A stretch of 64,000 bases of DNA, taken from contig MHUO01000004.1 of the NCBI GenBank assembly GCA_001825035.1, positions 155,476 through 219,475 on the forward strand. The letters are read 5' to 3'. Numbering within the stretch: the first letter of the stretch is position 1; the number at the start of each line of letters is the position of its first letter. The DNA is from Candidatus Wildermuthbacteria bacterium RIFOXYD1_FULL_50_12. GTDB lineage: Bacteria > Patescibacteriota > Minisyncoccia > Minisyncoccales > UBA10102. Shown piece after piece: positions 5,811 through 47,181 of the stretch. A model generated the notes under the pieces. It was not told where the DNA came from, ran no database searches, and was given only the letters and a program-made list of their open reading frames with translations. The translations under genes were made by a program, and so were the position numbers.

Positions 5811-5827
5811 CCTTTAATATTTGTTCT

Positions 5828-6487
5828 ATGATACCACTACCAGATTTTAGTAAAGCATTCGACTACGAAAACGGCTTCTACCTTTCGTGCGATACTTCGC
5901 GCATGGCAAAAATGGCAGCGCATTACGAGCTGTACAAAATGTCGCTCAGCATTCCGGGTGACATCGCAGAATGCGGAGTATTCAAGGGTGTGGCACTGGT
6001 GCGTTTTGCTATGCTTCAAAAGCTGTTTGGCGAGATGCCTAAAAAAGTTGTTGGTTTTGATACTTTCGGCGTGTTCCCGGAAACCAACTTTGAAGGCGAT
6101 AAGGCTCCCCGCAAAAAATTTATTGATGACGCAGGGCAAGAAAGTATTACAGTTGAGCAATTGCAGGCTGTGTTGCGGCACAAAGCTTTGGAGCAAGATG
6201 TTGAGCTGGTACCGGGAGATATTACCGAAACAGTGCCTGCGTACGCCGCCTCGCATCCCGACATGAAGTTTTCGCTTATTAATCTGGATGTTGATATTTA
6301 TGAGCCAAGCGTCACGGTGTTGCAGTATTTGTATCCAAAATTAGAGAAAGGGGGCGTGCTTATTCTGGACGATTATGGCAGATTCCCAGGGGAAACCAAA
6401 GCAGTGGATGATTACTTTCAGGGCCAGGGCGTGGAAATCCACAAGTTTCCGTTTTGCAAAACACCGCAATATATTATTAAGGCGTAA
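5828..6487 (+). CDS. TylF/MycF-family (macrocin O-methyltransferase-like) sugar O-methyltransferase
   Basis: GDIAECGVFKGV, NLDVDIYEPS and GGVLILDDY are typical of the TylF/MycF family. Confidence 0.6.
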   Translation: MIPLPDFSKAFDYENGFYLSCDTSRMAKMAAHYELYKMSLSIPGDIAECGVFKGVALVRFAMLQKLFGEMPKKVVGFDTFGVFPETNFEGDKAPRKKFIDDAGQESITVEQLQAVLRHKALEQDVELVPGDITETVPAYAASHPDMKFSLINLDVDIYEPSVTVLQYLYPKLEKGGVLILDDYGRFPGETKAVDDYFQGQGVEIHKFPFCKTPQYIIKA

Positions 6488-6490
6488 TCC

Positions 6491-7312
6491 ATGACAGACG
6501 AGATGCAAAACAGTATCGGTATAATGCAGGGAAGGGTGGTGCCCCAAACTTTGGAGCGACTGCAAATTTTCCCCGAGCGTTGGGAGGAAGAGTTTCGCAC
6601 GGCAAGAGAGCTGGGCTTTGACCACATTGAGCTACTGGATGATAAAGAAAATCGCTTGCGCGATTTGCTCAAAACCCAAAAACAAGAAGTTTTTGCCAGT
6701 GTTTTGAACGCTGGCCTCCAGTGTACTTCTTTATGTGCTGACCAACTGTGCAGGTATTCGTTGCTGGGCAACCCTGTCGAGTTTAAGGAGCGTATAAAAG
6801 ATTTGCTGCAGCTGATAGAAGGGCAAGATGGATTTGTTGTGGTGGTGCCGTTTTTCGACGAAAATCAGCTCCGCTCGGCGGAAGAATTCAAGCAAGCGCT
6901 TGCGGCGTTGGCCCCGTTTGATAGGCTACTACAGCAAAAGGGTCTGCGTTTTGCCCTGGAAGTACTGCTGTCCGCAAAAGATATTATGGGGTCGTTTGAA
7001 GGATTTTCGTTTGGCGCCATCGGAATGTGCTATGACATTGGGAATAGTATTGGAAACGGCTTTCCGGTGCGCGAAGAAATTAGGAGTTTGGGAACTCTGA
7101 TAACTCATGTTCACGTAAAAGATAAAGAAAACGGGAAAAACGTGCGGATTGGAGCGCATCCAAAAGAACTGGGCGATGCCTTCGGAGCATTGAAAGAAAT
7201 AGGATACGGAGGGTTGCTTACCTTAGAAACATGCATTACGCCGGTTCCCGCGGAAGAAGCAAAGACGAATTTGGAGACAGTAAAAAAGCTAACGCGCGGG
7301 ATACCGCTATGA
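6491..7312 (+). CDS. Sugar phosphate isomerase/epimerase (xylose isomerase-like TIM barrel)
   Basis: HIELLDDKEN and MCYDIGN...HVHVKD...LTLE resemble AP-endonuclease-2/xylose isomerase-like TIM barrel proteins. Confidence 0.55.
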   Translation: MTDEMQNSIGIMQGRVVPQTLERLQIFPERWEEEFRTARELGFDHIELLDDKENRLRDLLKTQKQEVFASVLNAGLQCTSLCADQLCRYSLLGNPVEFKERIKDLLQLIEGQDGFVVVVPFFDENQLRSAEEFKQALAALAPFDRLLQQKGLRFALEVLLSAKDIMGSFEGFSFGAIGMCYDIGNSIGNGFPVREEIRSLGTLITHVHVKDKENGKNVRIGAHPKELGDAFGALKEIGYGGLLTLETCITPVPAEEAKTNLETVKKLTRGIPL

Positions 7313-32975: not shown

Positions 32976-33926
32976 ATGGGAGAATTTGAGACATTAAAAC
33001 AGCAGTTTCCGCGAGTGCGGCGAGGTGTGCCGCTCAAAAAGCATACGACGTTTCGCATTGGGGGGGCTGCCAAATATTTTTTTGCTGCGCGTACGAGCGA
33101 CGAGCTCGAAAGCGCGGTACGGACCGCAAAGGAGTTGGAACTGCCTTTTTTCCTGTTGTCTGGAGGCAGCAATGTTTTAGTTTCTGACAATGGTTTTCCT
33201 GGCCTCGTGATACAAATTAAAAATTCAAAATTCAAAATTGAAAATTCTGCTGTGCGGGCTGAGGCAGGAGTGCAGATGGCGACGCTCGTGAAAGAAACAG
33301 GAAAGCGGGGATTGCAGGGATTGGAATGGGCGGGCGGATTGCCTGGCACTTTGGGAGGAGCTGTGCGGGGGAACGCGGGTGCTTTTGGAGGCGAGATAAA
33401 GGACTCTGTTTTGCGAGTGGAAGCGATTGATCAGAAAGGGAAACGCAGAATGTTTTCAAAAAAGCAGTGCAAATTTTCGTATCGTTCCTCCATTTTTAAA
33501 GAAAGGGGATATATTGTATTGTCAGCGACCTTGCAGTTAAAGAAGGGCGACAAGAAAAACATTCAGACAATTGCGAAAAAGCATATCCAGTACCGAAAGG
33601 AGAAGCATCCCTTAGAATATCCGAGCGCGGGAAGCATTTTTAAGAATTGCGATCTCGCGAAAACTCCAAAAAAAATGCAGGAGCACTTCAAAGACGTAAT
33701 TAAGATGGATCCTTTCCCCGTAATTCCCACTGCAGTAATAATCGCGCGCGCGAATTTGCCCGGATTGCGCTGCGGCGGTGCGCAAGTTTCAGAAAAACAT
33801 CCAAATTACATTGTGAATCGCGGAGACGCGCGCGCAAAAGACGTGTTGGAACTCATTGCGAAGGTAAAGCGCGAGATAAAAAACAAATTTGGAGTTGATT
33901 TGGAAGAAGAAATCACGATTTTATAG
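32976..33926 (+). CDS. murB: UDP-N-acetylenolpyruvoylglucosamine reductase (MurB)
   Basis: FRIGGAAKYFF (FAD-binding) and SAGSIFKN. Length and domain order fit MurB. Confidence 0.8.
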   Translation: MGEFETLKQQFPRVRRGVPLKKHTTFRIGGAAKYFFAARTSDELESAVRTAKELELPFFLLSGGSNVLVSDNGFPGLVIQIKNSKFKIENSAVRAEAGVQMATLVKETGKRGLQGLEWAGGLPGTLGGAVRGNAGAFGGEIKDSVLRVEAIDQKGKRRMFSKKQCKFSYRSSIFKERGYIVLSATLQLKKGDKKNIQTIAKKHIQYRKEKHPLEYPSAGSIFKNCDLAKTPKKMQEHFKDVIKMDPFPVIPTAVIIARANLPGLRCGGAQVSEKHPNYIVNRGDARAKDVLELIAKVKREIKNKFGVDLEEEITIL

Positions 33927-34124: not shown

Positions 34125-34160
34125 CCCGCCCCGACGTTATGTCGGGGCGGATTTGTTTTT
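34125..34160 (+). terminator. Intrinsic terminator (10-bp GC stem CCGCCCCGAC/GUCGGGGCGG plus U-tract)
   Basis: Perfect stem at 34126-34135 / 34141-34150, loop GUUAU, then AUUUGUUUUU. Confidence 0.65.
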
Positions 34161-34191
34161 GCGCGAAAACGTGGTATACTCAAACCTTACA

Positions 34192-36729
34192 ATGGCGCTC
34201 TTGGGCAACATCTTTAAAAAATCGCAGGATTCCTTTCTGAAGGAAGCACAGGAAATTGTTTTGCGTATAAACGTGCTGGAGTCGGAATTTGAGAAACTCA
34301 GTTCAGAAGCGCTCAAAGCAAAAACGCAAGAACTCAAAGAAAAACTTGAAGCAGGGGCTTCTCTTGCTGACTTGCTTCCCGTTGCATTTGCACTCATTCG
34401 CGAATCCTCAAAACGCACGCTCGGCCAGCGGCATTTTGACGTGCAGCTGGTGGGAGGCATAGTGCTCCACGCAGGCAAGATCGCGGAAATGAAAACGGGC
34501 GAAGGGAAAACGCTCGTTGCCACCTTGCCTGCGTACCTCAACGCGCTGGAAGAGAAAGGAGTACACGTGGTTACGGTAAACGATTATTTGGCAAAGCGTG
34601 ACGCCGTGTGGATGGGACAGATTTATTATACGCTCGGAATGAGCGTGGGGTGCATTGTGCACGACGCTTCCTATATATACGATCCCGCATTCGCGCAAGA
34701 AAACGCAGAGAGAGATGAGGCGCGCGACACTCTCGGTAGTTTTCGAGTTGAAGACACATATCTGCGGCCCGTGTCGCGCAAGGAAGCATACGCGGCAGAC
34801 ATTACCTATGGCACGAACAATGAGTTCGGATTTGATTTTCTGCGCGACAACATGGTGTACGATTTGAGTCAGCAGACGCAGCCCCGCCTGCGCGGGCAGG
34901 GAGGACATCACTTTGCCATTATCGACGAGGTAGATTCCATTTTGATTGACGAGGCAAGAACTCCCTTGATTATTTCAGCTCCCGACGAAGAGAGTTCTTC
35001 TTGGTACAGGGATTTTGCGAAAATAACGCCCCAGCTCAAAAAGGATACGGACTACGAAGTAGATGAAAAGCTGAAAGCCGTAACTATTACGGACGCTGGC
35101 ATCAATAAAGTGGAAGGGCTTTTGGGTGTGCAGAATATTTATGAAGAACGGGGAATGAAATATGTTCGCCATTTGGAGAACGCCCTGCGCGCGCAAGCAT
35201 TGTTTCAGAGAGATCGAGATTATGTGGTGCGCCAAGGCCAGGTGGTAATTATTGATGAATTCACGGGCCGCTTGCTTCCCGGGCGCCGGTATTCAGCTGG
35301 ATTGCATCAGGCACTGGAAGCGAAAGAAGGAGTTCAGGTACAGCCAGAGTCGCTCACGTTGGCCTCTGTGACGTTTCAGAATTATTTTAGAATGTACAAA
35401 AAACTTGCGGGGATGACCGGAACTGCTTTTACGTCAGAAGAAGAGTTTTATAGTGTGTATGGTTTGGAAGTGAAGGTGGTTCCCACGAATAAACCCATGA
35501 TCAGGCAGGATTTGTCAGATCGCATTTACCGGACAGAACAGGGAAAATTTCGCGCCGTGGTCCGGGAAATTAAAGCGCGGCACGAAAAGGGCCAGCCCCT
35601 GCTTGTGGGCACCGTGTCTATACAGAAAAACGAGTATCTCGGCAAATTGCTCCAAACAGAAGGAATTCCCCATAACATTCTCAACGCAAAACACCATGAA
35701 CAGGAAGCGCAGATTATTGCGCAAGCCGGGCGTTTGGGAGCTGTAACCGTGGCAACCAATATGGCTGGTCGCGGTGTGGATATTGTCTTGGGCGGGAATC
35801 CGCCAAGCGAGGAGGAGGCGACAAAAGTGAAAGAAATGGGTGGCCTGCATGTAATTGGCACCGAACGCCACGAAGCTCGGAGAATAGACAACCAGCTGAG
35901 GGGGCGGGCAGGCAGACAAGGGGATCCTGGCTCCACGCAATTCTTTGTTTCCATGGAAGACGATTTGATGCGTATTTTCGGGGGAGAGCGCATCAAAGGG
36001 TTGATGGAAAAACTCCGTATGCCAGAAGACGAGTCTATTGAGAATAGAATACTTTCGAACGCGCTTGAGTCGGCGCAGTCCAAAATTGAGGGTTTTCATT
36101 TTGACGCGAGAAAGCACGTATTGCAGTATGATGATGTGTTAAACAAGCACCGAGACGCTTTGTATCGCCAACGCCGCGAAATTTTAGAGAAAGCAGAAAA
36201 GGGAGAGCTGAGAGAATATATAATACATATGGCAGGGGAGCACGGTGTCTCTAAAGACGATTACGAGAAGAAAGAGCGGGAGTTGGGCGAGGAAAATATG
36301 CGGCAAGCGGAAAAAATTGTCGCCTTGCGCGCCATTGACTCTTTGTGGGTGGGGCATTTGGAAGAAATGGAACATTTGCGAGATTCTGTGCGTTTACGCG
36401 CCTATGGTCAGCGCGATCCCTTGGTGGAATATAAGACCGAAGGACATCGTATGTTCCAGCAGTTGTTGAGCGCCGTGGAGGAAACCATTGCAAAAACTCT
36501 TATGCAGGTGCAGCTTGCGCCCCAAGCAACCCCTCCCATTCAGCAAAATGTGAGTTATTCCAGCCCGGCGAATATGTCTGCTTCAGCTGTGGGTGCGGCC
36601 GCCTCCGTCCGCCCCGGGCGGACTTCGGCGGCTCAAAAGGTGGGGCGTAACAACCCCTGCCCCTGCGGAGCGACCCATCCCGATGGTCGTCCAATGAAGT
36701 ACAAGCATTGCCATGGGAAGAATCCTTGA
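34192..36729 (+). CDS. secA: Preprotein translocase ATPase SecA with C-terminal SEC-C zinc motif
   Basis: DEAD-like motor motifs (MKTGEGKT, DEVDSILIDEARTPLIIS) and C-terminal CPCGATHPDGRPMKYKHCHG. Start at internal ATG 34192 (MALLGNIFKK...). Confidence 0.9.
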   Translation: MALLGNIFKKSQDSFLKEAQEIVLRINVLESEFEKLSSEALKAKTQELKEKLEAGASLADLLPVAFALIRESSKRTLGQRHFDVQLVGGIVLHAGKIAEMKTGEGKTLVATLPAYLNALEEKGVHVVTVNDYLAKRDAVWMGQIYYTLGMSVGCIVHDASYIYDPAFAQENAERDEARDTLGSFRVEDTYLRPVSRKEAYAADITYGTNNEFGFDFLRDNMVYDLSQQTQPRLRGQGGHHFAIIDEVDSILIDEARTPLIISAPDEESSSWYRDFAKITPQLKKDTDYEVDEKLKAVTITDAGINKVEGLLGVQNIYEERGMKYVRHLENALRAQALFQRDRDYVVRQGQVVIIDEFTGRLLPGRRYSAGLHQALEAKEGVQVQPESLTLASVTFQNYFRMYKKLAGMTGTAFTSEEEFYSVYGLEVKVVPTNKPMIRQDLSDRIYRTEQGKFRAVVREIKARHEKGQPLLVGTVSIQKNEYLGKLLQTEGIPHNILNAKHHEQEAQIIAQAGRLGAVTVATNMAGRGVDIVLGGNPPSEEEATKVKEMGGLHVIGTERHEARRIDNQLRGRAGRQGDPGSTQFFVSMEDDLMRIFGGERIKGLMEKLRMPEDESIENRILSNALESAQSKIEGFHFDARKHVLQYDDVLNKHRDALYRQRREILEKAEKGELREYIIHMAGEHGVSKDDYEKKERELGEENMRQAEKIVALRAIDSLWVGHLEEMEHLRDSVRLRAYGQRDPLVEYKTEGHRMFQQLLSAVEETIAKTLMQVQLAPQATPPIQQNVSYSSPANMSASAVGAAASVRPGRTSAAQKVGRNNPCPCGATHPDGRPMKYKHCHGKNP

Positions 36730-36806
36730 GAATCTTCCAAACGAAGCGGAGTCCGCCGTAGCCTTGGCGAAGGCGGGCGGCTCTGGCAAAAAATATAAAA
36801 GATGTC

Positions 36807-37334
36807 ATGGGGCGTAAGAGAATGAATATTATTGAAGAATTCAAAAAAGTAAGAGATATCCCGTACCGAATTCCGTTGTCTCCGCAAGAACCCGATAATT
36901 GTTGCTCTGGAAAATCGGAGCGATTGTTTAAGATATTCGAGGAAGTCGGTTATGAGGTGCGGTATATAGTTTGCACTTTTCACTGGAGCGATATGAGGTT
37001 ACCAGCAAAGGTGCAAGAAATTGCCCACGAAGATAAATGTACGCACAGCTATCTTGAAGTAAAGATAGGAGATGAATGGATAAAAGTTGACGCGACGTGG
37101 GACAAAGAGTTAAAAAGCGTGTTTAATGTTAATGATTGGAATGGCAAATCGCACACAAAAGTGGCAGTTCCAGTAAAAGAATGCTTCTCGTCGGAAGAAA
37201 GCGCGGAGATTATGCAGAAAGGCACAACAGAAGAAGCCACAAAGGAAGACCGGCAGAAAAATGGAGAATTCTATAAAGCATTCAACGATTGGTTAGCAGA
37301 AATTAGAATAAAATCCCTGCGGGGTAGTGAATAA
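36807..37334 (+). CDS. Transglutaminase-like cysteine peptidase superfamily protein
   Basis: Cys...His...Asp spacing (NCCSGKSERLF ... THSYLEVKIG ... KVDATWD) as in transglutaminase-like cores. Begins MGRK, with the ATG inside the upstream CHG codons. Confidence 0.45.
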   Translation: MGRKRMNIIEEFKKVRDIPYRIPLSPQEPDNCCSGKSERLFKIFEEVGYEVRYIVCTFHWSDMRLPAKVQEIAHEDKCTHSYLEVKIGDEWIKVDATWDKELKSVFNVNDWNGKSHTKVAVPVKECFSSEESAEIMQKGTTEEATKEDRQKNGEFYKAFNDWLAEIRIKSLRGSE

Positions 37335-37398
37335 AGCGTAAAAGTGCCATGGGGCGTGAATGTGCCAACCGGCTGGCGCATTTGGAAAAGGATAAGAA

Positions 37399-38118
37399 GT
37401 GCCGTGGGAAGTAAGTATGGTAGTTGAACCAAAATTTTATCAAAACTGGGAGGATGACAGTCACTGCCTTCAATCGTCCGTGATGATAGTTTTGAATACA
37501 TTAAACAGAAAGGTAACATGGGATGAGGTAAATAAAATGACAGATTATGAAGACGGCTTATACTCTTGGGTGCCGCGCGCTGTTGTTGCGCTTGCAGAAC
37601 GAATTCCTGGGACGAGGCATATTAGTGTAATGGACTATGGAAAATTCGCGGAAAAAGGTGAGGAATATCTAAAAGAGTTTATGCCTGGAGAGTGGTTTGA
37701 GGATCAAAAAAGAAATGCTTCTGTTGGATTCCAGAAAGAGCAGAAGGCAGCACAAGACCTCATTCAGAAGAACCTTCTTGAGCAAAAAGTAAGATTTACA
37801 AAAGAGGACTTCGAGAGTTTACTTGATAAACATTTGTTGATAGCGCTTGTTAATGGGAAAAAATTAGCTCAACTTGAGGGTAACGTGGGACATTTTGTTG
37901 TAGTTTATGGGCAAGATGAGGAAAACTTTATTATTCATGATCCTGGATTGCCAGCACGAGAAGCCTGGAAAGCCCAAAAGGATTTATTTTTACACGCATT
38001 TCAGGGAGAATTGATTCTCGTACCTAAAGGTGATGTACCGATTGGAGTAGAAGTCAGCCGCAACGATCCCTGCCTCTGCGGAAGCGGCAAAAAATATAAG
38101 AAGTGTCATGGGAAATAA
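37399..38118 (+). CDS. Papain-like (C39-like) cysteine peptidase domain protein carrying a C-terminal SecA-type SEC-C zinc motif
   Basis: YQNWEDDSHCLQSSVMIVL (Gln/Cys), GHFVVVYG..IHDP (His/Asp), and C-terminal NDPCLCGSGKKYKKCHGK*. Confidence 0.45.
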   Translation: MPWEVSMVVEPKFYQNWEDDSHCLQSSVMIVLNTLNRKVTWDEVNKMTDYEDGLYSWVPRAVVALAERIPGTRHISVMDYGKFAEKGEEYLKEFMPGEWFEDQKRNASVGFQKEQKAAQDLIQKNLLEQKVRFTKEDFESLLDKHLLIALVNGKKLAQLEGNVGHFVVVYGQDEENFIIHDPGLPAREAWKAQKDLFLHAFQGELILVPKGDVPIGVEVSRNDPCLCGSGKKYKKCHGK

Positions 38119-38470
38119 AACCATGGAAGGAGCATCTTTACAAGCAATTGAGGATTATTATTACCGACACGGTTTGAGAGGTAGTAAACTTAGAAAAGCG
38201 ACCGAAAACGATCAGGAGTATATGACGATTCTTAAAGATCGCTGGGCAAAACTGACTAAAAAATTTCCAGTTAAATCACGGGACAGAAAAAGGTATATTT
38301 TATCTACCGATCAAGATTATCAAATTTTAGATAAGATATATAAGCTTGAACGTAAGAAACTGTCAGACAAAGATAAGGCCCTGGTAAAGTTAGTAAGAAC
38401 TCAGCTTGAGCATCACTGGAGAGCACCGATTATAAAATTTCTAAATCAACTACTTAAGAAATACCGTTAA
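38108..38470 (+). CDS. Hypothetical Lys-rich 120-aa protein
   Basis: Complete ORF. Start MGNK is embedded in the CHGK codons of the upstream gene. Confidence 0.35.
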   Translation: MGNKTMEGASLQAIEDYYYRHGLRGSKLRKATENDQEYMTILKDRWAKLTKKFPVKSRDRKRYILSTDQDYQILDKIYKLERKKLSDKDKALVKLVRTQLEHHWRAPIIKFLNQLLKKYR

Positions 38471-38504: not shown

Positions 38505-39044
38505 ATGATTTATTTCATTACCGGCAACAAGAATAAACTCGAAGAGGTGAAAGCGGTATTGCCCGAAGTAGAACAATTAGATATTGACTTGCTTGAAATT
38601 CAAGAGATTGATTCAAAGGAAATCATAAAGAAGAAGTTGTCAGAAGCGTTCAATCGCGCCGAAGGAGAGTTTATTGTAGAGGATACATCTTTGCACCTGA
38701 ATTGTTTAAAAGGATTGCCAGGACCATTGGTAAAATGGTTTTTGAAAACGATCGGAAATGATGGTTTGGCTGGAATTGCTGAAAAATTAGGAAGCAGCAG
38801 GGCCGAAGCAAAAACGATTATTGGGTACGCGAAAAATCATGAAGAAATCTATTTTTTCGAGGGTGTAATAAAAGGGCAAATAGTAAAACCGCGGGGAGAA
38901 TCAGATTTCGGCTGGGATCCGATATTTTTACCAGATGGTCATGAAAAGACATTTGCTGAAATGGGCAGAGAAGAAAAGAATAAAATCAGCATGAGGAGGG
39001 AGGCACTAAATAAGCTAAGTGAATTCTTGCGGGCGCAGGAATAA
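38505..39044 (+). CDS. rdgB: Non-canonical purine NTP pyrophosphatase (Ham1/RdgB, ITPase)
   Basis: TGNKNKLEE and FGWDPIF motifs. Confidence 0.8.
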
Positions 39045-39057
39045 AAACAAAAAGGCC

Positions 39058-39474
39058 ATGGGAGATAACGGTAATCAATTTGTAGGGGTTCGGAAGAGCG
39101 AAAAGCACGGGAGGGGATTGTTTGCATTAAGAAATTTTGTAAAGGGAGAAATGATATATTCTTTTCCTTTGGAAAGAGTAGTAAGTCCACGTCAAATCCA
39201 GGGACTTTCGGAAGAAGAGCGAGATCATCTTGATAAGATAGGTGAAGATGAATATGAAATTATCCAGCCCCCTCTCTGTTATGTGAATCATTCTTGCGAT
39301 CCGGATATTTAGGAGGCGCTAGAAGGGAGGGCAAGAGTAGGATATGCTTTGCGAGATATAATGAGCGGAGAAGAGTTGACGGTGGATTATGATAAGACGG
39401 CGTATCTTGAGATGCCATTCGAATGCCACTGCGGCTCAAAAAACTGCAGAGGACTCGTGCGAGGTAAGAGGTAA
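39058..39474 (+). pseudogene. SET-domain protein gene interrupted by an in-frame TAG (nonsense or sequencing error)
   Basis: GRGLFA...NHSCDPDI, then TAG at 39313-39315, then in the same frame EALEGRARVGYALRDIMSGEELTVDYDK...CHCGSKNCRG (post-SET Cys cluster). TAG is a normal stop elsewhere in the window. Confidence 0.55.
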
Positions 39475-39487
39475 AAACAGAGAAAAT

Positions 39488-39916
39488 ATGGAAGGTAAAA
39501 AAGAGCAACAAAAAGTAGTGGTGGCGGCGTGCATTCGTGATGAAAAGGGAAAAATTCTTTTGGCAAAAAGAGTTGACTTTTTGAATCTTAAAGCAAATGG
39601 GAAGTGGGAGTTTCCGGGCGGGGAAGTAGAGTTTGGCGAATCGCCCGAAGCCGCACTTATGCGTGAATGTCGAGAGGAAATTGGGTGTACAATAGAAATT
39701 GTACGCTTGCTGCCATATCTTCATCAAAATGTGGGGCACCGGACAACGGGCGAGGTGGTGCAGGCGTTTGTGTCGTGTTTTGAGGCGAAAATTACGGAAG
39801 GGGAGCCAAAGCCCGCAGAACGGGAGATTTCCGAACTGCAATGGTATAAAAAAGAAGAGATACCTGCGCTGGACTCCCTCCCCGGCACCAACGAATTTAT
39901 AAATTTGCTTGAATAA
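39488..39916 (+). CDS. NUDIX hydrolase (MutT-like)
   Basis: NUDIX box GGEVEFGESPEAALMRECREEIG. Start at internal ATG (MEGKKEQ). Confidence 0.75.
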   Translation: MEGKKEQQKVVVAACIRDEKGKILLAKRVDFLNLKANGKWEFPGGEVEFGESPEAALMRECREEIGCTIEIVRLLPYLHQNVGHRTTGEVVQAFVSCFEAKITEGEPKPAEREISELQWYKKEEIPALDSLPGTNEFINLLE

Positions 39917-39921
39917 AAAAT

Positions 39922-40128
39922 ATGAGACAGAAAGGATTCGGATTAATTATGCTAATGATTGCTATGGCTATTATTGCCTTTCTCGTAGTGGGAGGGGTAT
40001 ATGTTTCTGGCGTCAGGAGGGAACGATCAGTCATCGAGACGGGGATTGATGCCACGCAGCAGATTGAAGATATCCAGAACATGCTTAACGCGCACGGCGA
40101 ACAGATAAAAACTGAATCACAGGAATAA
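39922..40128 (+). CDS. Small membrane protein with prepilin-like N-terminal hydrophobic helix
   Basis: QKGFGLIMLMIAMAIIAFLVV resembles a type IV pilin/pseudopilin N-terminus but lacks the canonical Glu5. Confidence 0.3.
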   Translation: MRQKGFGLIMLMIAMAIIAFLVVGGVYVSGVRRERSVIETGIDATQQIEDIQNMLNAHGEQIKTESQE

Positions 40129-40130
40129 TT

Positions 40131-40904
40131 ATGGACTACCAAAAAATTGTGTTCCCCGTATTGAGAGAGGCGGGGGAGGAGCTGAGGAAAGGTTTTGGGA
40201 AGGCCGAAATTATACAGGAGAAAGGCGATCTTGCGGTGGATGTGGTAACTGCGCTTGATAGGAAGACAGAAGAGTTTCTTGCAACAAAACTTCGCGCAGC
40301 AGATCCTTCCGCAGATTTTTATGGGGAAGAAAACGGTGGGCACGAGGATGGCGAGCGATTTTGGGTATGCGACCCCATAGACGGGACTGCGCATTTTATA
40401 CGAGGACTGCCTTTTTGTACCACCATGCTGTGCCTGATTGAAAATGGTCAGGTCGTATTTTCTGCGATTTATGATTTTGTGAAAGACGACATCTATTGGG
40501 CAGAAAAAGGGAAAGGCGCTTGGAGGAACGATGATCCAATTCACGTGAGCAAGCGCACCTTGCAACAGGCATATCTTTCGTTTGAAACGCATGAGGATAA
40601 TCCGCAGGATGCAGAAAAACTTCACGCATTGCGCAAACGATGTATTCTTGTGAATACGATAAGCGCCGGCTTTGAATACGCGATGGTAGCTTGTGGCAAA
40701 CTGGAAGGCAGGATTACGTTTGATCCGTATGGCAAAGTTTGGGATTATGCGTCCGGCCCTCTTTTGGTGGAAGAAGCGGGCGGGGTTGCGGTGAACATCG
40801 GGAAGGAAAGTTATGACTATCGCAATTTTGACGTTATCGCTACGAACCCCGTTATTTACAAAGAGCTCACCGAAGGAGAACACGCAATCTTTCCTATTCG
40901 ATAA
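40131..40904 (+). CDS. Inositol monophosphatase-family phosphatase (SuhB/CysQ-like)
   Basis: WVCDPIDGT and FYGEE motifs. Confidence 0.8.
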   Translation: MDYQKIVFPVLREAGEELRKGFGKAEIIQEKGDLAVDVVTALDRKTEEFLATKLRAADPSADFYGEENGGHEDGERFWVCDPIDGTAHFIRGLPFCTTMLCLIENGQVVFSAIYDFVKDDIYWAEKGKGAWRNDDPIHVSKRTLQQAYLSFETHEDNPQDAEKLHALRKRCILVNTISAGFEYAMVACGKLEGRITFDPYGKVWDYASGPLLVEEAGGVAVNIGKESYDYRNFDVIATNPVIYKELTEGEHAIFPIR

Positions 40905-40906
40905 AT

Positions 40907-41356
40907 ATGCCAAGCAATAAAGAACGACATCGAATTATTCCAGCCGCATATGTGATTTTCCGTGATGGGGATAAGATTTTATTGCAGAGGAGAATGAATA
41001 CGGGATATGAAGATGGAAATTACGGACTTGTCTCTGGACATGTGGAGCAGGGAGAATCGTACAAGGCAGCAATAGTTCGTGAGGCGAGAGAAGAAACAGG
41101 GATAGAGTTGCGGCAAGAAGATTTGAGATTTGTGCACTTCATGCATCGGAGCCAAAAAGATGTGTATAACGAAAGGGCAGATGTATTTTTTGTTGCAGAA
41201 CGCTGGGAGGGGGAGATTACGAACGCGGAACCTGAAAAGTGCGACGATTTGAGCTGGTTTGATAAAAACAATCTTCCAGAGAACCTCATTCCATATATTC
41301 GCGAAGCTTTGCGGTATATAGAGGAAGGTATAATGTACAGCGAATATGGCTGGTAA
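40907..41356 (+). CDS. NUDIX hydrolase
   Basis: NUDIX box SGHVEQGESYKAAIVREAREETGIE. Confidence 0.8.
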   Translation: MPSNKERHRIIPAAYVIFRDGDKILLQRRMNTGYEDGNYGLVSGHVEQGESYKAAIVREAREETGIELRQEDLRFVHFMHRSQKDVYNERADVFFVAERWEGEITNAEPEKCDDLSWFDKNNLPENLIPYIREALRYIEEGIMYSEYGW

Positions 41357-41362
41357 TTAGCA

Positions 41363-42361
41363 ATGATTTTTTCCATCACAAAACCAGATCCATTCAATAT
41401 TCTTGCTTCAACAAAGGGGGTCTTGGAGGAAGCAAAGTTTGTTGCCATTAACCAAAAGGCAGTTGAGAGCAATGTCACGCGCATTGGCGGGTATCTCAAG
41501 CAACATGCTGATTTCCCCGATTTTGGGCACCGACTTACGGGAAACTTTGAAGCCGATCTCCAATTGATTTTCTTTGAATCGATGATGGGTTTTTGCTTTT
41601 GGACGATTCCCGGAAAGCCCAAGTGGGGCATTGAAATGTCGGATGGCGAAAGGGTTGATGGATGGTACGGGGTGTGTGCGTCGTTTAAGCGCGCGTACGA
41701 TGAAGGCACACCCGTAGGCGATGCGAATTTTTTTGCGAAGGCAGATAGAAAAGATGTACAGAATATATTTCGTTCTGCAACTGGTGCTGAGATTCCATTG
41801 CTCGACGAGCGAGTCGCGATCCTCAATGAGAACGCGCGTGTTCTCAATGAGCATTTTGGCGGCAAGACGCTAAATCTTCTTGAGGCCGCCGATCGGGACG
41901 TAATAAAACTTCTTCATCTCTTGCTTCAATGTTTTCCATCGTATCGAGATGTTGCGACATACAATGCCCGTGAGGTTGTATTTCTTAAAATTGCCCATTT
42001 GCTTGCACTTGATTTGGAGTATCGATTGACTCCGCAGTCGCAACGACCGTTCTTGAAGAATTTTGATCAGTTGTGCGTGTTCGCCGACTATAAATTGCCG
42101 CAGCTATTGCGAGCTTTTGGCGTGTTAGAGTATAAGCAGTCGCTTGCCGATACGGTTGATTCTTATACAATCATTCCAAAAGGATCGGAACAGGAGGTTG
42201 AGATTCGATCTGGCGCGATATGGGGCGTGGAGCTTTTGCGGCAACAGCTTCCCGAGTATTCTTCTGTTCAGGTCGGCCACGTCATCTGGCTGTTGAGCCA
42301 GGATCAGGAATTGCAGTCCAAGATCAAACCTTATCATCGTACGCATACAACATTTTATTAA
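41363..42361 (+). CDS. Queuosine-salvage-like protein (DUF2419/Qng1-like); tentative
   Basis: 332 aa, soluble. FLKIAHLLALDL resembles the FxKRAQI region of DUF2419. Weak, composition-based call. Confidence 0.3.
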   Translation: MIFSITKPDPFNILASTKGVLEEAKFVAINQKAVESNVTRIGGYLKQHADFPDFGHRLTGNFEADLQLIFFESMMGFCFWTIPGKPKWGIEMSDGERVDGWYGVCASFKRAYDEGTPVGDANFFAKADRKDVQNIFRSATGAEIPLLDERVAILNENARVLNEHFGGKTLNLLEAADRDVIKLLHLLLQCFPSYRDVATYNAREVVFLKIAHLLALDLEYRLTPQSQRPFLKNFDQLCVFADYKLPQLLRAFGVLEYKQSLADTVDSYTIIPKGSEQEVEIRSGAIWGVELLRQQLPEYSSVQVGHVIWLLSQDQELQSKIKPYHRTHTTFY

Positions 42362-42384
42362 ATGGAAAACCAAAGTGCCTAAAT

Positions 42385-42918
42385 ATGCCAAAGAGATTGG
42401 GAGAGAAAGAAATCTTTAAATCGAGAATCTTTACCATTAAAGAAGCCGAGCTTGAGTTTGCATCGGGGAGAAAAGTAAAACATGAATTCCTTGATCTAGG
42501 AGATTCGGTGATGGTGGTTCCGATTGCGGAAGACGGAACATTGCTTCTCATAAATGAGTATCATACTGCAATCAACGAGTTTCAGCTTGGGCTTTGTAAG
42601 GGGGCCTTACACAAGGGGGAAGATCCAAGGGAACGAGCCAATACTGAATTGCAAGAAGAGGTTGGCCATAAGGCACAAAAGTTAGACGAGCTGATCGTGT
42701 TGAATGCATTCCCTGGTTATCAGACCAACAAAACGTTTGTGTATCTCGCAAGAGATTTGGTGAAAAGCAAGCTGGCGGGGGATGTAGATGAGGAAGAGCT
42801 TGAAGTTTTTCCATACCCATTTTTGGATTTCGAAAAACTTATTGAGGATGGAAGATTGAAAGAAGCAAGGGCGATTGCGGCGCTATATCTTGCAAAAAAA
42901 TTTCTCAATAATTCTTAA
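42385..42918 (+). CDS. NUDIX hydrolase, ADP-ribose pyrophosphatase-like
   Basis: IFKSRIFTIKEAELEFASGRKVKHEFLDLGDSVMVVPI is a NudF-like N-terminus. NUDIX box GLCKGALHKGEDPRERANTELQEEVG. Confidence 0.7.
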   Translation: MPKRLGEKEIFKSRIFTIKEAELEFASGRKVKHEFLDLGDSVMVVPIAEDGTLLLINEYHTAINEFQLGLCKGALHKGEDPRERANTELQEEVGHKAQKLDELIVLNAFPGYQTNKTFVYLARDLVKSKLAGDVDEEELEVFPYPFLDFEKLIEDGRLKEARAIAALYLAKKFLNNS

Positions 42919-42921
42919 TGT

Positions 42922-43394
42922 ATGTCACACATTCACGAACTTATCGATTGGACCGTAGTAGCTTATGTGGTGCATGGGGAGAAGGTTCTTATGGTATACC
43001 ATAGAGAACTTCAAAAGTGGTTGCCGTTGGGCGGGCACATTGAGTTAAATGAAGATCCCGACGAAGCGTTGATGCGTGAAGTGCAAGAGGAGAGCGGCAT
43101 TGAGGAGATAGAAGTGCTTGCCGCAAAACCTACAGTTGAAGGTGATACGAGCGAGCGCAAATTTCTATATACCCCTGCATATATGGATATCATAAGATCA
43201 ACGATCGACATAGGCACATTGGACTGGTATATTTTCTCCGCACGAGAACCGATGCGATTCGGCTCGCAGAGAGTGAGCATGAGGGAATCCGCTGGTTTAC
43301 TATAAAAGATTTAGAGAGACCCGAATTTCACATTGAACCTTCCATCAAATTTTACGCAAAAGAAGCCTTAACAAGGGCATATGACGACGATTGA
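42922..43394 (+). pseudogene. NUDIX hydrolase gene with an apparent frameshift near 43280-43300
   Basis: N-terminal frame carries the NUDIX box GGHIELNEDPDEALMREVQEESG and stops at 43305. A second frame continues as ...EHEGIRWFTIKDLERPEFHIEPSIKFYAKEALTRAYDDD* to about 43394. Confidence 0.5.
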
Positions 43395-43716
43395 AGATTT
43401 TGAAAAAGTGGATATACGGGTGGGGAATATAATTGAGGTGGAGGATTTCCCGGAAGCAAGGAAGCCGGCGTATAAACTCAAGATTGATTTTGGGCAGGAA
43501 GTTGGCGTGAAACAATCTTCTGCGCGGCTGGTAGATTTATACACAAAAGAAGAACTTAATGGAAAGTTAGTGTTGGGAGTGGTGAATTTTCCTCCGAGAC
43601 AAATCGGTCCATTTGTTTCTGAAGTTTTGACGCTCGGCGTTCCTGATGAAAACGGAAACGTAATTTTAGTGGTGCCAGACAAAGAAAATTCTCCGCTTGG
43701 GGGCAAACTATTTTGA
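43381..43716 (+). CDS. tRNA-binding domain protein (CsaA/Trbp111-like)
   Basis: VDIRVGNIIEVEDFPEARKPAYKLKIDFG...LNGKLVLGVVNFPPRQIG. Confidence 0.7.
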   Translation: MTTIEDFEKVDIRVGNIIEVEDFPEARKPAYKLKIDFGQEVGVKQSSARLVDLYTKEELNGKLVLGVVNFPPRQIGPFVSEVLTLGVPDENGNVILVVPDKENSPLGGKLF

Positions 43717-44288
43717 CTATGAAAATTATATTGGGGTCGAGGTCGGAGGGAAGACAAGAGATGCTGAGGGAGATGGGGTATGAGTTTGAGGTGATGCCGG
43801 CGGATATTGATGAAAAGGCGATTCGGCATGAGAATCCGAGAGAGTTGGTTTTGATGTTGGCGAACGCGAAAGCAGATGCATTATTGCCAAAGATCAAGGA
43901 GCCCGCGATTTTGATTACGGCAGATCAGGTAGTGGCATGGAATGGCCAGATCCGAGAAAAGCCGGAGAATGAGGAAGAGGCAAAAGAGTTTTTGCGAACA
44001 TATTATCAGGCCCCAGCAGAAGTCATAAATGGAATCGTGGTAGTGAATACGGGAACGGGGAAAAGGGCGTCTGCGGTGGATTCAAGCAGGGTATACTTTA
44101 AGGAAATTCCGACAGATGCACTTGAGCAGTTTGCAAAGCTCGAACACATTTATCGGAGAGCAGGCGGTTTTGCGATTAGAGATCCCTTGCTTCAGCCATA
44201 CATTGAGAAAGTGGAAGGAACAGACGATAGCGTAATGGGCCTGCCAAAGGAACTTACCAAGCAATTAATTCGTGAGGTCATAGCGTAA
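43713..44288 (+). CDS. maf: Maf-family nucleoside triphosphate pyrophosphatase
   Basis: IILGSRSEGRQEML N-terminus. Length ~190 aa. Confidence 0.75.
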   Translation: MTMKIILGSRSEGRQEMLREMGYEFEVMPADIDEKAIRHENPRELVLMLANAKADALLPKIKEPAILITADQVVAWNGQIREKPENEEEAKEFLRTYYQAPAEVINGIVVVNTGTGKRASAVDSSRVYFKEIPTDALEQFAKLEHIYRRAGGFAIRDPLLQPYIEKVEGTDDSVMGLPKELTKQLIREVIA

Positions 44289-44929
44289 TGGCACTGGTGT
44301 TTATTCTCATAGCGTTTGTTGTTGCGATTCCGTTTTTGGTGCTGTTTGGATTGTTTCATGTTGCGACATCTGGTTTTGAAAAATTAGGATTGCCTCCAGA
44401 AGCAGTGTTTGGAGTGCTATTCTTTATGCTTGTGGGCTCGTTAATCAATATTCCCATCGGAAGGCGGCGGCTGGTGGAAGTAGAGGAATCCCGCTTTTTT
44501 GGATTGGTACGCCGGCGGGGATTTCAGCAGCAAGGGCTTTCCCTGAACGTGGGCGGAGTAATTATCCCTCTGCTTTTAGTTTTGTATCTTTTGCCGAGGG
44601 TGCCGCTTCGCGAGACCTTGCTTGCCTCTTTACTTATGATTGTGCTCTGTTTTCTGCTCGCCAGATTCGTGCCGGGCAAGGGAATAGCGATTCCCATATT
44701 GTTTCCTGCCCTGTTTGCAACCATATTCGGCTTGGTGCTTGCGTTTGAGGCGGCGGCGGCCGTGGCTTTTGTTTCAGGGGTGCTGGGCGTGATTATCGGA
44801 GGCGATTTGCTCCACTTGCCGCGAGTGATGCGAGAGAATCAGGGCATAATGTCCATCGGGGGAGCCGGCGTGTTTGATGGTATCTTTCTCATTGCCATTA
44901 TTGCGACTTTCCTTGCCGGACTGCTCTAA
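44288..44929 (+). CDS. Integral membrane protein (DUF1614-like)
   Basis: Multiple TM helices. No catalytic motifs recognised. Confidence 0.35.
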   Translation: MALVFILIAFVVAIPFLVLFGLFHVATSGFEKLGLPPEAVFGVLFFMLVGSLINIPIGRRRLVEVEESRFFGLVRRRGFQQQGLSLNVGGVIIPLLLVLYLLPRVPLRETLLASLLMIVLCFLLARFVPGKGIAIPILFPALFATIFGLVLAFEAAAAVAFVSGVLGVIIGGDLLHLPRVMRENQGIMSIGGAGVFDGIFLIAIIATFLAGLL

Positions 44930-44948
44930 ATGTGGTAACGTAGTGCGT

Positions 44949-46301
44949 ATGCAAAGATGGAGGGTAGTTAGTATTGTTGCTCTCGCGCTTCTGGCAGGGG
45001 TGGCTGCCGGATTTTTTGTTTTCCCAGAGCAGGTTAATCTCCGGCTCGCAAAGCTTCCAGGCAGCCCACAAGTTCCCGTGATACCGTTTCGTTTGGGACT
45101 GGATTTGCAGGGAGGCGTGCACTTGGTATACGAGGCGGATCTGTCTCGGGTGGATTCTGCTGATTATGACTCTGCTACGGAAGGACTGCGCGATATCATT
45201 GAGCGGCGCGTGAATATTTTTGGCGCCAAAGAATCCGTAGTGCAGATTGAGGGCGGGGGAGACGACCGGCGCCTCATCGTGGAAATTGCCGGAGCAGTTG
45301 ACGCTGGAGAAGCCATCGAAATGATTGGGCGAGCACCGTTTCTTGAGTTTCGGGAGCTGAAGAGGGATTACGAAGAAATCGTTCAAAGAAATCAACAAGT
45401 ACTTGAAAGCGGAGAGGATCCGCCAGCTGGCGGATTTGAGAATATCTATGTTTCTACCCAACTCAACGGAAGTTTTCTCCAGCGCGCCGAGGTGGGGTTT
45501 GAGCAAGTAACGCAAAGTCCCAATATTCTTTTGACGTTCAATGACGAGGGAGCGCGCCTTTTTCAAGAAATAACCGGCCGCAACGTGGGTAAACCTCTCG
45601 CGATTTTTTTGGACAACGAATTGCTTGAGGAGCCGGTTGTGCGGGGGGAAATTTCAGGTGGCAAGGCGCAGATTACGGGACAATTTACTTTGGAAGAGGC
45701 GCGTCAGTTCGTGCGCGATCTCAACGCGGGCGCCGTGCCGGTTTCTATCTCTCTACTTTCTCAGCAGACAGTTGGGCCTACACTCGGCAAGGTGTCGTTA
45801 GCGCAGAGTCTAAAGGCAGGGATTATCGGATTTTTCCTCGTGGTGGCTTTTATGATCGCGTTCTATAGAGTTCCGGGCGCTCTGGCGATTTTGACGCTTT
45901 CCTTGTATGGAGTGTTTTTGCTGTTTTTGTTAAAGATCTTCGGGCTTACCTTTACCTTGGCAGGAATTGCAGGTATCATTCTTTCCATAGGCATGGCGGT
46001 GGATGCTAATATTCTTATTTTTTCAAGATTTCGCGAAGAGATGGACGAAGGCAAATCATTTTCCGTGAGCATGGAAGAAGGTTTTCGCAGGGCATGGCCT
46101 TCCATTCGCGATGGAAACGTTACCACCCTGCTTGCGGCATTCATTCTTTTCTGGTTCGGTACCTCTTTCGTACAGGGGTTTGCGCTTACCTTGGCTGTCG
46201 GCATTTTTGTGAGCATGTTTTCCGCGATTTTCGTGACCAAGAACTTTATGCGCTTGTTCATAAACACGCGACTTGAGAAAATTGCGTGGCTGTGGAAATA
46301 G
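44949..46301 (+). CDS. secD: Protein translocase subunit SecD
   Basis: LGLDLQGGVHLVYEAD and a C-terminal RND-like 6-TM domain. Start at internal ATG 44949. Confidence 0.85.
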   Translation: MQRWRVVSIVALALLAGVAAGFFVFPEQVNLRLAKLPGSPQVPVIPFRLGLDLQGGVHLVYEADLSRVDSADYDSATEGLRDIIERRVNIFGAKESVVQIEGGGDDRRLIVEIAGAVDAGEAIEMIGRAPFLEFRELKRDYEEIVQRNQQVLESGEDPPAGGFENIYVSTQLNGSFLQRAEVGFEQVTQSPNILLTFNDEGARLFQEITGRNVGKPLAIFLDNELLEEPVVRGEISGGKAQITGQFTLEEARQFVRDLNAGAVPVSISLLSQQTVGPTLGKVSLAQSLKAGIIGFFLVVAFMIAFYRVPGALAILTLSLYGVFLLFLLKIFGLTFTLAGIAGIILSIGMAVDANILIFSRFREEMDEGKSFSVSMEEGFRRAWPSIRDGNVTTLLAAFILFWFGTSFVQGFALTLAVGIFVSMFSAIFVTKNFMRLFINTRLEKIAWLWK

Positions 46302-46302
46302 T

Positions 46303-47181
46303 ATGAAGATTTTAGATTATTCCAAATATTGTCTCTTTCTTTCCGTTGTTTTGGTTGTCGCGAGCATATTCGCCATTGCGGTTTTTGGATTGAAACCCGG
46401 CATTGAGTTCACGGGAGGGAGCATATTGGGGGTGGAATATGCAAAAGAGCGTCCTTCTCTGGAGTTCGTGCGCGGCCGACTTGCCGGCATGGACGTGGGT
46501 TTGGTTTCTGCTCAGGAGGCGGGTGAGCAGGGGATTATTCTTCGTATGAGAGATCTTTCGGAAAAACAGCATCAAGCGGTATTGACTGTTCTCGGGTCAG
46601 ATGCGCGGGAGGTGCGTTTTGAATCCATTGGGCCGGTTATCGGCAAAGAGTTGAGAGGGAAATCACTCATTCTTTTGATGCTCGTCCTCGGAGCCATTAC
46701 TCTCTACGTTATGTTCGCCTTCAGAAAAATGAGACAGCCCGTGCATCCTTTTCGCTGGAGCTTGGCAGCTCTTGTGGCATTGCTGCACGATATCTTGATT
46801 CCTCTTGGCGCACTTGCCGTTTTGGGCGCAATGTACGGCGAACAGATTACGATTCCCGTGGTTGTTGCGCTTTTGACCGTGGCGGGTTATTCCGTAAACG
46901 ACACGGTGGTGATATTTGACCGCATACGAGAGAATTTCCTTAAAAAAACGGGGACTGATTTTGCAGACACGGTTCGTAAGGGCTTGGAGCAGACGCTCGT
47001 CCGCTCCGTGAATACTTCCCTTACCACGTTGCTTGTGGTGCTTGCCATTGTATTCTTCGGAGGAGAAACGCTCCGGCTTTTCGCGCTTACTTTGGCAATA
47101 GGCATGGGAGCAGGGGTATGGTCTTCTTTGTTTGTTGCTCCCTTTGTCTTGACGAGAAAAGGAAAGTTTGGTTTAATCTAG
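46303..47181 (+). CDS. secF: Protein translocase subunit SecF
   Basis: GIEFTGGS and HDILIPLG. Start at internal ATG 46303. Confidence 0.85.
   Translation: MKILDYSKYCLFLSVVLVVASIFAIAVFGLKPGIEFTGGSILGVEYAKERPSLEFVRGRLAGMDVGLVSAQEAGEQGIILRMRDLSEKQHQAVLTVLGSDAREVRFESIGPVIGKELRGKSLILLMLVLGAITLYVMFAFRKMRQPVHPFRWSLAALVALLHDILIPLGALAVLGAMYGEQITIPVVVALLTVAGYSVNDTVVIFDRIRENFLKKTGTDFADTVRKGLEQTLVRSVNTSLTTLLVVLAIVFFGGETLRLFALTLAIGMGAGVWSSLFVAPFVLTRKGKFGLI

Follow-up and report, generated by a model that had tools for sequence, protein, structure and literature searches.

SecA-type metal-binding (SEC-C) domains are not confined to SecA. In Escherichia coli, YecA/AscA and YchJ carry a C-terminal CxCxSx6C[HC] domain nearly identical to that of SecA on an otherwise unrelated UPF0149 or UPF0225 domain, and in AscA this metal-binding domain is required for binding to SecB and to the ribosome (10.1101/2020.07.21.215244). 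Many bacterial methionine aminopeptidases also bear a SecA-type domain (10.1101/613315), and the domain has been speculated to serve as a toolkit by which the Sec machinery acquires new functions (10.1101/2020.07.21.215244; 10.1101/613315); binding of Zn or Fe, and of SecB or the ribosome, is known for the domains of E. coli SecA and AscA only (10.1101/613315; 10.1101/2020.07.21.215244). SEC-C-bearing proteins as such are thus familiar, and it is on the spread of the domain and the roles of most of its carriers that the locus described here bears. The locus lies in a 64,000-nucleotide (nt) stretch of an ultra-small bacterium of the Parcubacteria, Candidatus Wildermuthbacteria bacterium RIFOXYD1_FULL_50_12 (the window; contig MHUO01000004.1, positions 155,476 to 219,475), in which secA is followed on the same strand by two genes, ORF1 and ORF2, where ORF stands for open reading frame. 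ORF2 combines a predicted C39-like cysteine peptidase with a SecA tail directly beside secA, a new architecture; no paper linking SEC-C with Patescibacteria was found in the literature searched. We posit that recombination at the 3' end of secA creates and maintains such tails, and that the tail of ORF2 tethers the peptidase; taken as a whole, we consider this reading probable, if by no great distance.

ORF2 resembles YecA/AscA and YchJ in carrying a SecA-like domain at the C terminus of an unrelated domain, and it resembles the SEC-C-bearing methionine aminopeptidases (NF008970 / PRK12318) in joining a peptidase to a domain that is thought to place the enzyme at the ribosome. It differs from the former pair in its partner domain, which is a C39-like peptidase, and in the position of its gene, immediately after secA amid decayed copies of the tail. 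In the aminopeptidases, by contrast, the motif is N-terminal, the enzyme, a metallopeptidase, has a known substrate, and no linkage to secA has been described. A third point of reference is the C39 domain of the bacteriocin and quorum-signal ABC (ATP-binding cassette) exporters PCAT1, ComA and LahT, with which ORF2 shares the papain-like fold and the order and spacing of Cys, His and Asp; unlike these domains, ORF2 is a stand-alone protein without a transporter, has a helical insert and does not conserve the oxyanion Gln.

From its sequence and a structural model, ORF2 is predicted to be a cysteine peptidase with a C39-like papain fold, soluble and located in the cytoplasm, whose triad is Cys23-His165-Asp181. 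The match to Peptidase_C39 (PF03412, clan CA; 32.8 bits against a cut-off of 22) covers only profile positions 72-130, the C-terminal half, and Peptidase_C39_2 stays below its cut-off of 24 with 22.0 bits. An AlphaFold2 model built on the family alignment has a pLDDT (predicted local distance difference test score) of 95.5, and its best folds in the PDB, identified with Foldseek, are the C39 domains of PCAT1, ComA and LahT (E 8e-6 to 4e-4), with template-modelling (TM) scores of 0.66-0.74 when normalised to the target and only about 0.45 when normalised to the query; these are followed by PeiR, the phytochelatin-synthase-like Alr0975 and a Bacillus C39-like protein. The family profile aligns C23, H165 and D181 with the ComA triad C17/H96/D112, and among 36 homologs each of the three is either invariant or conserved to at least 90%, as a peptidase reading of the gene demands; across 38 homologs, apparently all from Patescibacteria where a source is named, N16, D19, H22, C23, Q25, H165, H180 and D181 are conserved. 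The initial annotation had described a papain/C39-like Gln-Cys...His-Asp arrangement, of which the Cys, His, Asp and fold have held up, but not the Gln: Q15, upstream of the Cys, is variable, and the conserved Q25 lies after it. The helical insert occupies about residues 80-125, and the stand-alone protein has 233 residues. No ABC exporter is found among the genes annotated in window 25-48 kb, and no double-glycine precursor was noticed among the neighbouring genes. Translation probably starts at ATG 37417 (MVVEPKFY), because homologs begin MKFEPKFY; the GTG start called in the program-made ORF list falls in a tail relic. The window corresponds to Parcubacteria group bacterium GW2011_GWA1_49_26, and ORF2 is 100% identical to a deposited protein named ‘Protein translocase subunit SecA’, a name that is wrong, the SEC-C motif having evidently misled the annotation, and this database error is corrected here.

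The tail itself (CLCGSGKKYKKCHGK, residues 221-239, running to the stop) scores 39.7 bits with SEC-C (PF02810), where the cut-off is 20.4, conforms to the published CxCxSx6CH consensus (10.1101/2020.07.21.215244) and retains all canonical residues (RNDPCxCGSGKKYKKCHG). SecA of the window ends differently, in the long-spacing variant CPCGATHPDGRPMKYKHCHGKNP, in which CxC and CH are separated by 14 residues (CxC-x14-CH), the Ser is absent and the Pfam SEC-C score is merely 10.7 bits; the same variant is present in three of the related loci, which are labelled L001 and so on (L010, L001 and L019). The description of the ORF2 tail as SecA's own is therefore apt in that an intact SecA-type motif is present, but the motif has the canonical form rather than that of the SecA next to it. 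In the window and in L010, L001 and L019, all with long-type SecA, a short-type SEC-C copy, be it intact, degenerate or a relic, is found just downstream, on another gene or between genes. In L016 (4440-4523) the secA tail lacks its last ligand pair (...CGSGKKYKKCGMLNTEEHQKLMREKK), and a KKCHGK relic, ending at a stop, persists 3' of the next gene. That the ORF2 tail is intact whereas the neighbouring relics in the locus have decayed argues that it is under selection and functional. By analogy with E. coli AscA and the SEC-C-bearing methionine aminopeptidases, we infer that it may tether the peptidase to the ribosome or the Sec machinery, where ORF2 would act on nascent or pre-secretory chains; recruitment to SecA's partners, as proposed initially, is plausible on the same grounds.

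Tail-coding DNA is present five times in 36695-38118: as the atypical secA tail, as relics 1 to 3 and as the intact tail of ORF2 (Table 1). The degenerate 15-mer TGYCRTGGGRMRTRA has four matches where 0.01 is expected, all on the + strand and at gene junctions, one in each relic (36803-36817, 37345-37359 and 37400-37414) and one in the ORF2 tail, with none in the secA tail, and each of the starts called for ORF1, ORF2 and ORF3 falls within a tail copy. Relic 1 (GGSGKKYKRCHGA, then a stop), recovered by alignment and as a member of repeat families D1, D2 and D5, has lost the first two Cys; its reading frame is shifted by +1 from that of secA, and the ATG called for ORF1 lies within its span. 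Its homologous copy in L010 reads WCCGGSGKKYKKCHGA. The possibility that relic 1 is an alternative SecA C terminus reached by a +1 frameshift was set aside, the first two Cys being absent and the copy in L010 decaying differently. Relic 2, a tail-end fragment (KCHGA and a stop) just 3' of the ORF1 stop, is a direct repeat of the end of relic 1 (15/18 nt identical; D5). Relic 3 (MGRECANRLAHLEKDKKCRGK; D1 and alignment) is a decayed full-length SEC-C that ends 2 nt before the ATG of ORF2, the same geometry as at the junction of an intact secA tail and a C39 start in L096. With a decayed copy of the tail at each gene junction, the locus suggests that both the tail and the position arose by recombination with the 3' end of secA.

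Two of these copies adjoin predicted RNA structure. Folding of 36727-36822 gives a hairpin in the spacer that separates relic 1 from the secA stop, and a 10-bp hairpin at 37358-37383 lies within relic 3. At the position in L010 that is homologous to the spacer hairpin (about 1884-1925), a stronger hairpin (z -3.4) of unrelated sequence stands between conserved flanks. The hairpins at window 36747-36785, window 37358-37383 and in L010 occupy the place of the CxC part in the decayed tail copies; those of the window and L010 are not followed by a T-run and so do not resemble classical terminators.

Repeats of the same kind surround ORF1 elsewhere. The loci compared for ORF1 comprise 80 metagenome loci and four others, and within them only the subclade nearest the window ORF1 sits directly after a SEC-C motif, usually an intact secA tail (L009, L011, L015, L017/18, L023, L024 and L040). 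The layout of L010 is that of the window, with a long-type secA tail, a spacer hairpin, a decayed short-type tail and ORF1 in succession. A second tail fragment lies 3' of the ORF1 stop in the window, L010, L009, L006-8, L015 and L011, and the longest exact repeat between the ORF1 flanks reaches 21 nt in L010, 18 nt in L009 and 13 nt in L006-8, against 10 nt or fewer in the remaining 72 distinct loci, L076 excepted; equivalent repeats flank ORF1 in L015 too. ORF1 is thus bounded by direct repeats of the target site, as a site-specific cassette is, in L010, L009 and L006-8, the window having 15/18 nt. The relic variant (CHGA, CHGK or CCGQ) agrees with the local upstream tail or tail relic, and in L006-8 the relic-ORF1-relic unit is located away from secA. 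In L076, an archaeal-looking contig, and also in L077, a 15-nt direct repeat, TGGGTTCAAATCCCA (4940-4970 and 5520-5550 of L076), stands on both sides of the ORF1 homolog and resembles a tRNA T-arm plus acceptor end, with no intact tRNA found by ARAGORN; these repeats look like attachment-site remnants, which suggests that integration hotspots may house ORF1 genes in other places too. Relatives of ORF1 or ORF2 were not found in viral contigs, and there is therefore no sign of phage carriage.

Tails within one genome resemble one another more than tails of different genomes do (identity 0.77 within against 0.61 between; nine loci, permutation test, p = 1.4e-4). In L001, the secA and C39 tails share the unusual end KYKKCCYPKFG, with near-identity over the last ~35 nt, 29 of them in an unbroken run, but divergence at synonymous sites further upstream; just before the peptidase gene lies a relic, KKDPATGKPIKYKKCCGR with its stop. 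The tails of secA and an epimerase in L103 are identical at 47/48 nt, including the extension CHGAGK, and the C39 tail of L096 carries the GKKVGRND linker of its own SecA. The pattern extends beyond peptidases, for the position directly 3' of secA in related Patescibacteria varies among a C39 peptidase, a GalE-like epimerase, a glyoxalase-like protein, NUDIX, SET and NYN, and the genes in this position either end in a SEC-C tail or precede a tail relic. The GalE-like epimerase of L010 ends in NDPCPCGSGKKYKLCHGK, and its nearest relatives form a SEC-C-bearing clade inside a tail-less family; a SEC-C-tailed GalE-like epimerase is found immediately after secA in L102 and L103. L019 has a glyoxalase-like protein with a degenerate tail, L016 a NUDIX gene and then a relic, L022 a SET gene and then a relic, and L012 a further relic. 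All told, an extra SEC-C copy lies downstream of secA on the same strand in 16/22 secA-containing loci.

The direction and mechanism of the recombination that we infer from these sequences would be as follows. Small genes would be inserted repeatedly just after the secA stop in Patescibacteria, within a variable stretch between secA and secDF, each insertion duplicating the last 15-60 nt of the SEC-C coding sequence. A duplicated tail that is in frame with the inserted gene and useful would be kept, as in ORF2 and in the GalE-like epimerases elsewhere, and would otherwise decay to a relic, although its last codons (GGGAGGTGA, GGGAAGTAA) could persist because the next gene uses them as its ribosome-binding site or start region; the likeness of neighbouring tails would be upheld by gene conversion with secA. 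Repeated insertion or duplication at the secA stop, with crossing-over inside the tail-coding DNA, would explain the data most simply, and two successive single-crossover insertions would give the L001 arrangement exactly; one step would also suffice to join a neighbouring gene to the tail if a tandem duplication had one of its breakpoints where the tail begins.

Some integrative elements enter a conserved gene at its 3' end and leave a duplicate of that end, as is known for tRNA genes and for e14 and phage 21 in icd; integron cassettes offer a further comparison. The proposed inserts at the secA end resemble such elements in that direct repeats of the target 3' end bound the insert, the target remains intact and the displaced copy decays; they differ in being single genes of 0.5-1 kb with no integrase nearby, and in that the target encodes a zinc-finger tail that can be captured in frame. 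A more specific proposal, which we put forward tentatively and hold to be somewhat less probable than not, is that SecA-tail DNA of Patescibacteria is a recurrent attachment-like insertion site for single-gene cassettes, in-frame fusion yielding new tailed enzymes (C39, epimerase and glyoxalase-like).

Several observations weigh against an origin by recombination at secA. The ORF2 tail of the window is not close to the secA tail beside it (0.52-0.63 identity), codon usage common to a genome makes its tails more alike in nucleotide sequence, an effect that cannot account for L001 or L103, and adjacency to secA is equally explicable by selection for co-expression. Gene annotation and Pfam reveal no integrase, transposase or recombinase domains in window 25-48 kb, and neither an empty site nor a circular intermediate was observed; tail-bearing homologs not adjacent to secA exist (L090/91 and L098), and in L099 no relic separates secA from the C39 gene. 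Finally, the loci were gathered through homologs of ORF1, ORF2 or the epimerase and are not a random sample of secA loci.

Co-expression could also be the whole story, in which case the tailed peptidase would be a dedicated Sec accessory factor held near secA in a functional operon, and the relics and the likeness of the tails would be incidental. Tail-bearing C39 homologs indeed lie just downstream of secA in 6/8 loci with readable context, namely the window (ORF1 between), L001 (an NYN gene and a relic between), L092 (an NDT-like gene and a relic between), L094, L096 and L099, even though their secA sequences are only 40-61% identical, as compared with 0/5 for tail-less homologs (L003, L004, L005, L100 and L101). 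A C39 gene stands between secA and secDF in two lineages, and a promoter and terminator scan, with results at background level, detected no + strand terminator between secA and ORF3. We nevertheless regard an operon alone as unlikely: it leaves unexplained the exact direct repeats around ORF1 and the relics after unrelated genes (NYN, NDT-like, NUDIX and SET), as well as the near-identity of the L001 and L103 tails at synonymous sites, and a sugar epimerase displays the same combination of tail and position. In L096, the tailed C39 gene is immediately followed by a perfect palindrome with arms of ~24 bp (5720-5780) and by a Y1 (IS200/RAYT-like) transposase gene (5814-6527); this is the only locus with a Y1 transposase gene next to the array.

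Should the tail have been captured recently and neutrally, ORF2 would be an ordinary cytosolic C39-like peptidase whose tail has no role. The distribution of the tail is compatible with this, the nearest homologs of ORF2 being tail-less (P0002 at 72-74% identity, P0010, P0012 and P0017). Searching 1.84 billion representatives with a profile yields 929 family members, and 21/184 of the sequences examined have the tail; in a tree, all 21 fall in a clade around ORF2 and are interleaved with tail-less members, from which we take the tail to be derived and easily gained or lost. Its presence in orthologs, on which the proposal of a tail-directed peptidase was made to depend, is accordingly partial: the tail recurs in relatives and near secA, but about half of the close homologs, and most members of the wider family, lack it. 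Neutrality is nonetheless improbable, and more so than an operon alone, given that the ORF2 tail keeps every canonical residue next to two decayed relics in the locus and that the metal ligands are kept in 21 homologs down to about 40% identity, two of them not beside secA.

The repeated tail ends could instead be conserved translation-initiation elements, a Shine-Dalgarno mimic with an overlapping start, rather than scars of recombination. The tail-end codons GGGAGGTGA, GGGAAGTAA or GGGAAATAA are located 2-10 nt before the next ATG, and several downstream genes are called from an ATG within the tail. Relics 1 and 3 of the window and the relics of L001, L011 and L022, however, reach past the ribosome-binding site into SEC-C coding sequence, and a role in initiation would account for the persistence of relics, not for their source, thereby complementing recombination; as a replacement for it we judge this explanation quite improbable.

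ORF1, a cytoplasmic protein of 170 residues unrelated to ORF2, is predicted to be an enzyme independent of it with a transglutaminase-like fold. Its start is probably ATG 36822 (MNIIEEF), because homologs begin MNII, and the called start falls in a tail relic. More than 130 homologs of 160-170 residues occur in Patescibacteria and at least one Nanoarchaeota bin. C28, H75 and D90 (numbered from ATG 36822) do not vary among 49 homologs; no Pfam family, Transglut_core (PF01841) included, matches the window protein at threshold, and 3/49 family members match Transglut_core (best E 2.2e-5). The AlphaFold2 model (pLDDT 94.9) finds TglA as its best match (E 9.5e-3, probability 0.99), followed by arylamine N-acetyltransferases, vasohibins and the factor XIII, TG2 and TG3 transglutaminases, matches that are weak (all E >1e-3) but consistent in type; the fold assignment is a reasonable one. 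ORF1 shares with the transglutaminase-like/arylamine N-acetyltransferase superfamily the order of Cys, His and Asp at similar spacing, and departs from it in falling below the Pfam threshold as a minimal 170-residue version. The initial annotation had made it a cysteine-peptidase-like gene with transglutaminase-like spacing of Cys, His and Asp; the weak fold matches and the invariant Cys, His and Asp agree with a transglutaminase-like protein, and its peptidase label is putative at most. In L101, a 293-residue Transglut_core protein is encoded at 4014-4895, directly upstream of a tail-less C39 homolog; it was rejected as a relative of ORF1, to which its sequence is unrelated. It is very improbable that ORF1 and ORF2 work together as one system of two enzymes, for instance to mature peptides or modify proteins, despite their adjacency on one strand (82-nt gap) and the arrangement in L101, since two tail relics lie between them, 0/84 other ORF1 loci have an ORF2 homolog, no other ORF2 locus has ORF1 and the L101 protein is no relative; a conserved pair was rejected accordingly.

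Table 1. Positions of genes, tail copies and associated elements in the window
Feature	Position	Strand	Description
murB	32976-33926	+	
secA	34153-36729	+	Pfam SecA_DEAD, P-loop_SecA, SecA_PP_bind and SecA_SW all match
SecA C-terminal metal-binding motif	36658-36729	+	long-spacing variant
Hairpin	36747-36785	+	spacer between secA stop and relic 1
Relic 1	36776-36817	+	decayed short-type SEC-C
ORF1	36807-37334 (called, 175 aa); from ATG 36822, 170 aa	+	predicted transglutaminase-like fold
Relic 2	37340-37359	+	tail-end fragment
Relic 3	37349-37414	+	decayed full-length SEC-C
ORF2	37399-38118 (called from GTG, 239 aa); from ATG 37417, 233 aa	+	predicted C39-like peptidase with SEC-C tail
ORF2 Cys23	37465-37467	+	predicted catalytic residue
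ORF2 His165	37891-37893	+	predicted catalytic residue
ORF2 Asp181	37939-37941	+	predicted catalytic residue
ORF2 metal-binding domain	38059-38115	+	last 19 residues, canonical SecA-type
ORF3	38108-38470	+	120 aa
secD	44874-46301	+	Pfam match
secF	46273-47181	+	Pfam match

Both ORFs are present on the + strand directly after secA, as first described. The true start of secA is probably ATG 34192 rather than the called TTG; a strong terminator-like hairpin (11 bp, 9 of them GC, then a T-run) at window 34126-34150 ends 3 nt 5' of that TTG. Downstream, the called start of ORF3, ATGGGAAATAA, lies within the last codons of the ORF2 tail, and an MGNK-type start after a tail or relic, as in ORF3, is also found in L009, L010, L006 and L102. 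ORF3 is followed on the + strand by Ham1, then by small housekeeping genes (a frameshifted SET gene, five NUDIX genes, IMPase, Q_salvage, Maf and DUF1614) and then by secD; secD and secF (44874-47181) are the conserved far boundary of a variable interval that begins at the secA stop, and a sigma70_r4/HARE-HTH gene follows secF. From secA to secD this interval measures 8.1 kb in the window and 1.8 kb in L001, where the order is secA, NYN gene, C39 gene with its metal-binding domain, secD, secF and a sigma-like gene. Its part at window 38505-44288 is dense in nucleotide house-cleaning genes (Ham1, five NUDIX and Maf), alongside IMPase and Q_salvage, and NUDIX genes close to the 3' side of secA also occur in L009, L010, L016 and L102. 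The SET-domain gene at window 39019-39474 is seemingly split by a frameshift, 39019-39312 matching Pfam SET and the conserved C terminus (...ECHCGSKNCRGLVRGKR) lying in another frame; an intact homolog in L022 stands directly after secA and is followed by a tail relic. A small ORF at window 39922-40128 has a type IV pilin-like hydrophobic N terminus (MRQKGFGLIMLMIAMAIIAFLVV), and an Rfam search of 33-40 kb returned nothing meaningful.

The locus and its relatives offer sequence-level evidence for how unrelated enzymes may gain SEC-C, through duplication and gene conversion at the 3' end of secA, with relics that can be dated. They also lead to the prediction that, in these bacteria with reduced genomes, a peptidase and a sugar epimerase would be tethered to SecA's partner. 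If the secA tail does serve as a recurrent insertion site, the 3' end of secA would be a natural domain-tagging locus and a source of the diverse SEC-C protein family.

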